Shown here: piece after piece, positions 46,224 to 48,187 of the stretch
How the letters are laid out: every line of letters starts with the position of its first letter
Position numbering within the stretch: the first letter of the stretch is position 1
Assembly: GCF_003334315.1 (NCBI RefSeq)
Contig: NZ_QOWR01000007.1
Source: Escherichia coli
GTDB taxonomy: Bacteria > Pseudomonadota > Gammaproteobacteria > Enterobacterales > Enterobacteriaceae
DNA length: 64,000 nucleotides
Strand: one strand, 5' to 3'
Program-made: the position numbers and the translations under genes
The notes under the pieces: generated by a model
Databases searched by the model: none
Told to the model about the DNA's origin: nothing
The model's input: the letters and a program-made list of their open reading frames with translations, nothing else

Positions 46224-48187
46224 TTACTTACTCAAATCCACCTGATAAATCGCAAACCCGATATCATCGGTCGCGACTTTATTCATCGGATATTGCCCTT
46301 TCTCTTTAATAAACGCTGCGGCTTTATCTGACGGGGAAGTTTCGAAACGGATATCCAGTTTCTTATCGCCGGCTATCGGTGCTAAACGCCAGTTGTTATC
46401 TGCCGCCGGGTGAATTTCCCCCGCACGTTTCGACTCATCAGCAATCCACGCTGCCAGCACCGAGCGGTTCTCATCCGGTGAAGCAAAAGCGATATGGCTG
46501 TCGCCCGTACCGGCAAATTTGCCGCCGTAAGCGCGATAGTTATTGGTGGCAACGAGGAACATGGCGTTCGGATCAATCGGCTTGCCGTTAAAGGTCAGGT
46601 TCTTAATCCTTTCCGCATTGGCATTAACCATCTGGCACTCGCCGTCATAACGGGCAGGCTGGGTAACATCAATCTGATAATTCACACCATCAATCACATC
46701 AAAGTTATAGGTGCGGAAACCATCCCAGTTGATGAGTGACTGTGGTTTCGTGTTGTCAGGATCAATCTGGTTAAACTGTCCGGCGGAGCACTCCAGCCAC
46801 TCTTTCACCTCTTTACCGCTGGCTTTCACCACAATCAGCGTATTGGGGTAGAGATAAAGATCGGCGGCATTACGGAAGGTCAACTGGCCTTTTTCCACCT
46901 CCACATAGCTTGCCGGATCATTTTTGCGACCACCAACTTTAAACGGTGCAGCAGCTGAAAGCACCGGCAGTTTTGCCAGATCCGGATCGTCCTGAATGTA
47001 ATGCTCGACATACGCTTTTTGCGCGTTGTTCACCACCTGCACGGTCGGATCGTCCTGCACCAGCGCCAGATAGCTATACATATTGTCGGCGGATTTACCG
47101 ATTGGCTTGCTGACGAACTGGCGTGTGGCATCGTGATCGGCTTTGAGTGTTTCTACCAGCTTGCTGTCTTCCGCCGCGAGGGATTTTTTATTGGCGATGT
47201 CGTAAATCGGCCGTGCTTCCGCTTTCGCCTGCGTCACCTGCCATTTACCGCTGTTATTACTGAGTTGTAAGTCGACCACCCCAAGATGATCGCCCCACAT
47301 GCCCGGCATTACCGCCGGAACACCATTCAGCGTGCCTTTCGTGATATCAGCCCCTTCGATACGATATCAGCCCCTTCGATATCAGCAAAATCTTTACCTG
47401 GGAAAACGGCGTGAGCATGGCCAAACATAATGGCGTTAACGCCAGGAATTTCACTGAGGTAATAAACTGAGTTTTCCGCCATCACTTTATACGGATCGGC
47501 AGATAGCCCGGAATGCGCCAGAACGACAACGACATCGGCACCTTTCTCGCGCATTTCAGGCACGTATTTGCGCACGGTTTCGGTAATATCATTCACCGTC
47601 ACTTTTCCGGATAAATTAGCTTTATCCCAGCCCATGATTTGCGGCGGCACGACGCCAATATAGTCAATCTTCAGCGTCTGTTTTTTTCCGTCTTTATCGA
47701 CCACTTCGGTATCTTTAATTAAATACGGTGTAAACATTGGCTGTTTGGTTCTGGCGTCAATGACGTTGGCATTTACATAAGGGAATTTCGCTCCCGCCAA
47801 CGCATTTTTCAGGTAATCCAGACCGTAGTTAAATTCATGATTGCCGAGTGTACCGACCGTATAATCCAGCGTATTCAGCGCCTTATAAACCGGATGAACA
47901 TCACCTGCTTTTAATCCTTTCGCCGATATGTAATCGGCCAGCGGACTCCCCTGAATCAAATCGCCGTTATCGACCAGTACGCTGTTTTTCACTTCATTGC
48001 GGGCATCGTTAATCAGGCTTGCCGTACGTACCAGTCCGAATTTTTCCGTGGCGGTGTCTTTGTAATAATCGAAATCCATCATGTTGCTATGCAGATCAGT
48101 GGTTTCCATGATACGTAGATCGACCGTCGCTGCATTCACACTGGCGGCAATCAGCGTGGCCAGGAGCGTTGCGCTAAACTTAATCAT
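46224..48187 (-). pseudogene. cpdB: 2',3'-cyclic-nucleotide 2'-phosphodiesterase/3'-nucleotidase CpdB, disrupted by a frameshifting 20-bp tandem duplication
   Basis: N-terminal frame (start ATG 48187, [19 protein letters not shown]...) stops at 47327 after ...[20 protein letters not shown]; the C-terminal 361 codons ([14 protein letters not shown]...) continue in another frame to 46224; with one repeat copy removed the junction reads ...[24 protein letters not shown]... in frame. Confidence 0.85.
47343..47382. repeat. 20-bp direct tandem duplication inside cpdB
   Basis: gatatcagccccttcgatac / gatatcagccccttcgatat, 19 of 20 identical; flanked by the short repeat atcagc. Confidence 0.85.

Follow-up and report, generated by a model that had tools for sequence, protein, structure and literature searches.

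CpdB of Escherichia coli K-12 is a periplasmic 2',3'-cyclic-nucleotide 2'-phosphodiesterase/3'-nucleotidase, and published dissection of the E. coli enzyme divides it into an N domain with linker (residues 20-354) and a C domain (residues 355-647; PMC7922932). When expressed apart, the N domain (CpdB_Ndom) remains active on 2',3'-cyclic nucleoside monophosphates (2',3'-cNMP) and bis-4-nitrophenyl phosphate (bis-4-NPP) and loses nearly all 3'-nucleotidase and dinucleotidase activity, and the isolated C domain (CpdB_Cdom) is inactive (PMC7922932). Here we describe the cpdB locus of a 64,000-nt stretch of an E. coli genome (contig NZ_QOWR01000007.1 of assembly GCF_003334315.1, hereafter the window), in which the gene is split by a 20-bp tandem duplication. 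We hold with high confidence that this is a genuine, vertically inherited loss-of-function allele, founded by a single duplication, spread with its lineage and followed in at least one descendant by loss of the extra copy. The allele is already known as an annotated RefSeq pseudogene, and it is an ordinary pseudogene with a modestly interesting reversion history; a full-text literature search found no paper on it or on cpdB pseudogenes in E. coli. Added here are the exclusion of an artefact, the definition of the ancestral repeat register and of a change private to the window, and at least one natural lineage that has lost the extra copy.

The gene and the parts of the duplication are placed in the window as follows.
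46224-48187, minus strand: cpdB pseudogene, 1964 bp, from end-to-end alignment with K-12; between ytfH and cysQ.
47362-47381, minus strand: repeat copy 1 (5' on the coding strand), TATCGAAGGGGCTGATATCG, gene positions 807-826.
47342-47361, minus strand: repeat copy 2, TATCGAAGGGGCTGATATCA, gene positions 827-846; the 20 bp inserted relative to intact alleles.
47342, plus strand: window-private C>T (G>A on the coding strand), which makes the repeat 19/20.

Read directly, positions 47340-47386 run cgt GATATCAGCCCCTTCGATA c GATATCAGCCCCTTCGATA tcagc. For 47343-47381, Tandem Repeats Finder gives a period of 20, 2.0 copies, 100% matches and a score of 78, and the copies match at 19/20 positions in any 20-bp register. 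A direct scan of the 64 kb for adjacent 20-mers with at most one mismatch returned the cpdB site alone, in registers 47342 and 47343, against a chance expectation of 3.6e-6 such sites. In the carrier strains CP53, O68:H12 97.3 and 14EC001 both copies are identical, reading TATCGAAGGGGCTGATATCG twice in the coding-strand register that corresponds to window 47362-47381 plus 47342-47361, while the 20-mer is present once in K-12, E203449, OkiPb01684 and about 5,260 other genomes. The first-pass annotation of the window had proposed a 20-bp tandem duplication splitting cpdB, and this proposal holds, its register of 47343-47382 becoming 47342-47381 in that of the relatives. The single mismatch between the window's copies, 47342 C>T, falls on the final base of copy 2 as read on the coding strand, where SY3626, CP53, O68:H12 97.3 and 14EC001 all carry the other base. 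It was seen in the window alone and in none of the 5,426 complete E. coli genomes searched with probes, the set that underlies all complete-genome counts given here (best junction-probe identity 99.5%). The change is silent in the shifted frame and reads Ala276Thr if copy 1 is deleted.

The 20-bp unit, present twice and of a length not divisible by three, is the sole length difference between the window's gene and the 1944-bp gene of K-12. The frame shifts after codon 275 (Ile275), with the native residues 1-275 ending ...FADIEGADI, and two open reading frames (ORFs) are left.
47327-48187, minus strand: N-terminal ORF, 286 codons; signal peptide, residues 1-275 and 11 out-of-frame residues.
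46224-47309, minus strand: C-terminal ORF, 361 codons, starting at ATG 47309 (Met287).

The N-terminal ORF begins at the annotated cpdB start (48187) and stops at a TGA at 47327-47329; the C-terminal ORF comprises the last 68 N-domain residues and the entire C (substrate-binding) domain and lacks a signal peptide. The window thus contains no single continuous ORF of about 647 codons behind a signal peptide. These translations reproduce what had been read at first pass, a metallophosphatase half ending at about codon 286 and 361 C-terminal codons open in another frame, and deletion of either copy in silico gives, as also foreseen there, one continuous CpdB frame of 647 codons, reading ...ADIAKGT... 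or ...ADITKGT... depending on the copy removed. The restored protein matches Pfam Metallophos (PF00149) at residues 24-260 (E=2e-14) and 5_nucleotid_C (PF02872) at 357-549 (E=6e-19), the latter domain lying in the other frame in the window, and its nearest solved structures are the CpdB N domains 3jyf (E=6e-194) and 5eqv (E=4e-175). The orthologous position is confirmed by the gene order qorB-ytfH-cpdB-cysQ, common to K-12 and the window's relatives. Judged from its sequence, the window locus is a cpdB pseudogene and not a functional member of the CpdB family.

The same allele is widespread. A 200-bp junction probe (window 47263-47462) matched at full length with at least 99% identity in 147 complete genomes and with 95-99% identity in 3, the latter differing at three or more positions within the 200 bp, and a second probe, with 5,414 matching genomes, returned exactly 150 carriers, about 3% of complete E. 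coli genomes. RefSeq annotates a frameshifted cpdB pseudogene in all six carriers examined (CP53, O68:H12 97.3, SY3626, 14EC001, Z1323PEC0010 and Z1323PEC0011), with a length of 1964 bp, or 1963 bp in the two dog isolates Z1323PEC0010 and Z1323PEC0011. The exact 286-residue N fragment is encoded on 816 public contigs, and the Gly175 version of the N fragment and both versions of the C fragment each on at least 1000; the old assemblies KTE81 and DEC7B are among those with split products. Between the window and the carrier SY3626 the DNA is collinear and free of indels, 40.9 kb containing 10 substitutions (~99.98% identity). Independent assemblies of related strains thus share the allele.

These distributions bear on the possibility, raised at first pass, that the extra 20 bp is an assembly or sequencing artefact absent from the real chromosome. 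A short tandem repeat could in principle be miscounted; the explanation is rejected because 150 complete genomes, assembled independently and differing widely in laboratory, host, country and platform, have the same allele. Its presence in hundreds to thousands of draft assemblies and the collinearity of the window with carrier genomes leave the artefact a probability close to nil. The accompanying suggestion of a genuine, strain-specific inactivation stands in its first part and falls in its second, as the allele is lineage-wide. Carriers include the sequence types (STs) ST793 (O115:H10) and ST2064 (O52:H45; PMC6206212), and with O68:H12 also among them the allele spans several STs and serotypes, in isolates from pigs, poultry, cattle, dogs, frogs, humans and the environment. 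It is a clade marker, not the mark of a single clone. As a separate observation, SY3626 is the closest complete genome, no complete RefSeq genome being identical to the window, and the substitutions that part the two lie at 24444, 24462, 24552, 25050, 27549, 32660, 37965, 47342, 52298 and 62517, with 4 of the 10 clustered within 24444-25050.

Among the carriers, two derived amino acid changes mark sub-lineages.
46990, plus strand: Gly400Asp, gene position 1198; derived, common to the larger carrier sub-lineage.
47664, plus strand: Gly175Asp, gene position 524; derived, common to a sub-lineage of carriers.

The exact 81-mer with Asp400 is present in 63 of the 5,426 genomes and that with Asp175 in 37, and the strains read at both codons are distributed as follows.
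CP53: duplication, Gly at codon 175, Gly at codon 400.
O68:H12 97.3: duplication, Gly at codon 175, Asp at codon 400.
SY3626, the window and 14EC001: duplication, Asp at codon 175, Asp at codon 400.

With the duplication in 150 genomes, Asp400 in 63, Asp175 in 37 and a single-nucleotide polymorphism (SNP) in ytfF (window 44581) in 5, the markers form a nested series, which fits an order of duplication, then Gly400Asp, then Gly175Asp. The allele would accordingly have spread with its lineage, gaining Gly400Asp, Gly175Asp, a 1-bp loss in dog isolates and the window's 47342 C>T along the way. The dog isolates Z1323PEC0010 and Z1323PEC0011 keep a perfect duplication, and their lost base (A7>A6, gene positions 495-501, window ~47687-47693) reflects either continuing decay of the pseudogene or an error in sequencing a homopolymer. 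Together, the radical changes Gly175Asp and Gly400Asp and the dog-isolate deletion fit decay, in counts too small for a formal test; an argument from the ratio of non-synonymous to synonymous rates (dN/dS) was set aside because the carriers sampled yield too few changes (3 non-synonymous, 0 synonymous). E203449 has an intact allele that matches the duplicated one at 100% once a copy is removed from the latter; set in mosaic flanks, it may represent the ancestral type. We also observe that E203449 and a further strain, 2018-10-1CC, match the window around cpdB and diverge sharply a few kilobases away, in blocks at window 40700-42820 (cycA/fklB) and 34200-38700 with dozens of SNPs per kilobase-scale block. 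Such block divergence at a locus is a typical signature of recombination mosaicism.

The functional consequence follows from the frame, which ends before the C domain, and from the published domain dissection: no full-length periplasmic 2',3'-cNMP phosphodiesterase/3'-nucleotidase would be made, and we infer a null or near-null allele. The secreted 286-residue fragment is predicted to keep the metal-binding motifs and to lack the entire C domain together with the final 79 residues of the N domain; the C-terminal fragment, if translated, would be cytoplasmic and without a catalytic site, and both fragments are probably unstable. One may ask whether the gene is split yet functional, the secreted N fragment acting alone or with the C fragment and being kept by selection. 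All metallophosphoesterase motifs do lie before residue 262 (Pfam 24-260), the isolated N domain (20-354) hydrolyses 2',3'-cNMP and bis-4-NPP (PMC7922932), and both ORFs are still open in most carriers. Yet the native part of the natural fragment ends at residue 275, so that 79 residues present in the active construct and in the solved N-domain structures (16-354) are missing, and the C-terminal ORF has no signal peptide, with the C domain alone being inactive (PMC7922932). Carriers have, moreover, acquired Gly400Asp, the dog-isolate deletion and Gly175Asp, the last at a glycine conserved in Klebsiella, Yersinia and Bacillus subtilis homologues, and elsewhere cpdB is dispensable enough to have been hit by insertion sequences (ISs) at 8 distinct sites. 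We therefore regard a split, selected enzyme as decidedly unlikely.

Restoration of full-length CpdB by programmed recoding, through +1/-2 ribosomal frameshifting or transcriptional slippage, is so improbable that it hardly needs to be entertained. Beyond the fact that both halves are open, nothing speaks for it; on inspection, the 33 nt of overlap from the junction to the TGA (GTATCGAAGGGGCTGATATCACGAAAGGCACGCTGA) contain neither a homopolymer run nor any known slippery motif, the prfB-type CUU UGA for instance, and the allele is a recent derived insertion and not a conserved arrangement. The reading of cpdB as a loss-of-function allele is thus preferred over either form of retained activity.

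Other lesions have arisen in the gene independently. Eight sampled IS insertions fall at eight positions, about 204, 272, 357, 523, 572, 743, 867 and 1166 of the gene, each with its own target-site duplication, and involve elements named IS1, IS1A, IS1B, IS1X2, IS4, ISVsa5, IS3 and ISKpn26, counted as six IS types (strains ETEC1720, VG1046-3E9, SC516, HS30-1, AMSCJX02, TST3, BDSF8-3 and MSI001). The 20-bp duplication is absent from all eight of these alleles. About 29 of the best 60 cpdB matches were listed as IS-split, which may suggest that cpdB is often lost in E. coli. A different lesion was seen in 2018-10-1CC, whose near-identical cpdB lacks the duplication and is annotated as frameshifted by a 1-bp deletion (window 47882); this may be an assembly error, a nearby frameshifted gene and unique protein variants being present in the same assembly.

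The local sequence offers one candidate substrate for the formation of the duplication.
47377-47386, plus strand: 10-bp direct repeat CGATATCAGC, with further copies at 47362-47371 and 47342-47351 (the latter with the private T).

The ancestral coding sequence reads ...GCTGATATCG AAGGG GCTGATATCG CGAAAGG..., a 10-bp direct repeat with a period of 15 bp, so that slippage on it would yield an in-frame 15-bp change. At the junction itself microhomology is zero, since on inspection the bases flanking the 20-bp unit mismatch (A/G and T/C). With the repeats at a period of 15 rather than at unit spacing, and no junction microhomology, simple slippage does not explain the origin of the duplication. 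The slippage-prone atcagc context noted at first pass accordingly survives in part: a real 10-bp direct repeat is there, with the wrong period and no homology at the junction. In formal terms, adding a 5-bp TATCG duplication to a 15-bp slippage product would give the allele. Such a two-step origin is left without support: a probe with 80-bp flanks found the 15-bp duplication in 0 of 5,426 genomes, and the 5-bp-only intermediate was not searched. (An earlier 97-bp probe was uninformative, BLAST having split wild-type matches into two perfect overlapping pieces.) The most economical account is one founding event, in which the 20-bp unit TATCGAAGGGGCTGATATCG (gene positions 807-826) was duplicated in tandem on one E. 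coli cpdB haplotype. A single origin is argued for by the absence of any carrier on a K-12-type haplotype and of junction microhomology. When the duplication was placed on the K-12 haplotype and used as a query, no close match was found among complete genomes, though K-12 has the 25-bp core, a result that lends a recurrent hotspot no support.

At least one descendant of the duplicated lineage again carries a single copy. OkiPb01684 is a Shiga toxin-producing E. coli (STEC) of serotype O109:H10 with a closed genome at 269x coverage (PMC12613899). Its cpdB has both Asp175 and Asp400, contains one copy of the 20-mer, is annotated as intact and equals the cpdB of 14EC001 apart from the 20 bp; its intact allele or a one-step neighbour occurs in no other complete genome. 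Over about 60 kb, OkiPb01684 differs from the window by 13 substitutions and one 1-bp indel. It also shares the ytfF substitution with just four other complete genomes, those of 14EC001 and three dog isolates. The duplication was read directly in three of these (14EC001, Z1323PEC0010 and Z1323PEC0011), and in the fourth, Z1323PEC0013, a 24-kb window query matched in one 24,000-bp piece, duplication included. The most parsimonious explanation of the single copy in OkiPb01684 is precise loss of one copy, that is, reversion. On this account the perfect tandem repeat was unstable, and the O109:H10 lineage lost one copy precisely, presumably by slippage, and regained an open cpdB frame still bearing both Gly>Asp changes, such that the revertant enzyme may be impaired. 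That such duplications can revert had been anticipated at first pass, and natural single-copy descendants are now in hand.

Single-copy alleles extend beyond this genome. The intact Asp175/Asp400 protein is encoded on 98 contigs; of 24 places read, 23 group as similar, with the same neighbouring genes, and GCA_017680245.1, the one OkiPb-type contig whose DNA was examined, carries the two private SNPs of OkiPb01684. The OkiPb-type assemblies therefore suggest a single event, after which the lineage expanded. Another intact allele, with Gly175 and Asp400, lies in the Logan entry ERR14020331. It does not differ at any position from the O68 allele once a copy is removed from the latter, shows two SNPs relative to the window over 14 kb, and is probably a second reversion at that stage. 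Most other intact Gly175/Asp400 contigs are metagenome assemblies, mosaic and possibly chimeric, and were not used.

The finding of intact and duplicated versions at each stage (Gly/Gly, Gly/Asp and Asp/Asp) could also be accommodated by a duplication hotspot, in a region with direct repeats and GATATC palindromes; the intact alleles Gly175/Asp400 and Asp175/Asp400 would then be the ancestors, and the duplication would have been gained on three or more occasions. We consider this very improbable. The duplication occurs in none of the ~5,260 non-carrier genomes of other haplotypes, identical recurrences are unlikely with period-15 repeats and no microhomology at the 20-bp junction, and carriers far outnumber intact alleles at the derived stages among complete genomes (37 versus 1 and 63 versus 1). 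OkiPb01684, further, shares a SNP found in 5 of 5,426 genomes with carriers, and perfect tandem repeats are well known to lose a copy frequently. One gain followed by rare losses is thus the preferred reading.

Whether gain and loss of the copy act as an ON/OFF contingency mechanism for cpdB under selection can be weighed on the same data. A return to single copy has happened in nature at least once and probably twice, the revertant lineage has expanded to ~98 assemblies on an STEC background positive for the locus of enterocyte effacement (LEE), and cpdB is reported to be pro-virulent (PMC9958556). Against this, copy numbers are 1 and 2 only, one to two losses are seen against thousands of carriers, recurrent gain and repeated ON-to-OFF events have left no sign, and the secondary lesions of carriers fit decay rather than the upkeep of a switch. 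A selected phase-variable locus is thus a poor fit and very unlikely. Slightly better placed, though still unlikely, is the speculation that the duplication amounts to a slow reversible OFF switch, that reversion in STEC O109:H10 was selected during host colonisation and that the restored enzyme is active even with both Gly>Asp changes, gained during the time when the gene was broken.

Several points weigh against an inherited, single-origin, loss-of-function allele with later reversion. The nesting of the changes is read from probe counts together with the sequences of six carriers and not from a whole-genome phylogeny, 3 of the 150 carriers match the junction probe at 95-99%, and the two copies in the window itself are vouched for by identity with 150 other assemblies, not by reads. 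The 1-275 fragment, shorter than CpdB_Ndom, may keep residual activity by analogy with the action of that construct on 2',3'-cNMP. Lastly, the single copy of OkiPb01684 could have come with a short recombination patch from an intact donor, which would be untraceable because the common E. coli haplotype and the restored allele do not differ anywhere within gene positions 1-1166; the endpoints of such a traceless patch would fall inside gene positions 525-806 and 847-1197.

The surroundings of cpdB show further differences in gene content. In K-12, ytfI lies between cysQ and ytfJ; in the window lineage ytfI is absent, and cysQ and ytfJ abut and overlap (49107-49664). A seven-gene cluster lies between rplI and ytfB (window ~31415-39693, annotation taken from SY3626) and encodes a major facilitator superfamily (MFS) transporter, a flavin adenine dinucleotide (FAD)-dependent oxidoreductase, a coenzyme A (CoA)-transferase, an enoyl-CoA hydratase, a sugar-phosphate isomerase, a 3-ketoacyl-acyl carrier protein (ACP) reductase and a TetR regulator. 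K-12 presumably lacks this cluster, and in 14EC001 part of it has been removed by IS1A.

In practical terms the meaning of the allele is small. The window strain and ~3% of sequenced E. coli very probably lack periplasmic CpdB, the enzyme that would turn 2',3'-cyclic and 3'-nucleotides into nucleosides. CpdB also degrades cyclic dinucleotides and is reported to prolong colonisation by avian pathogenic E. coli (APEC) and Salmonella; the same source cites work in which cpdB deletion shortens the persistence of both in chicks (PMC9958556). Many of the carriers were isolated from livestock, food or humans and are multidrug-resistant, with mcr-1 or tet(X4). The allele offers a clean lineage marker and, more speculatively, may explain the appearance of cpdB k-mers as 'resistance' features in machine-learning classifiers (PMC8409726). 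Of wider interest is the apparent precise resurrection in nature of a tandem-duplication pseudogene after two radical substitutions.

Among known systems, K-12 cpdB (b4213, NP_418634.1) shares the orthologous locus and, once the window allele is restored, the two-domain architecture, at ~97% nucleotide identity (51 substitutions over 1944 aligned bases); it differs in having one copy of the 20-mer and a 647-codon ORF, where the window allele is frameshifted after codon 275. The RefSeq frameshifted genes EAH50_RS22110 (CP53), H0155_RS19910 (SY3626) and CR534_RS24370 (14EC001) share the duplication, its position, the 1964-bp length and the flanking genes with the window, their copies matching 20/20 and those of the window 19/20 owing to the private 47342 C>T. 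In the IS-disrupted alleles, cpdB was knocked out independently in nature, on closely related haplotypes but by another mechanism and at other positions, and these alleles cannot revert by simple loss of a repeat copy. The engineered CpdB_Ndom and CpdB_Cdom (Lopez-Villamizar et al. 2021, PMC7922932) resemble the natural fragments in that the catalytic N-terminal part and the substrate-binding C-terminal part are set apart, and they predict that an enzyme without its C domain would lose 3'-nucleotidase and dinucleotide activity; the engineered cut lies at 354/355, whereas the natural one lies at 275/276 inside the N domain and is followed by 11 aberrant residues, and the natural C fragment has no signal peptide. 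As in the CTGG x3 hotspot of lacI, a repeat frameshift can be precisely reversed by loss of a unit, but the unit here is 20 bp in two copies with no pre-existing period-20 homology, and the repeated gain that characterizes lacI is without evidence at cpdB.

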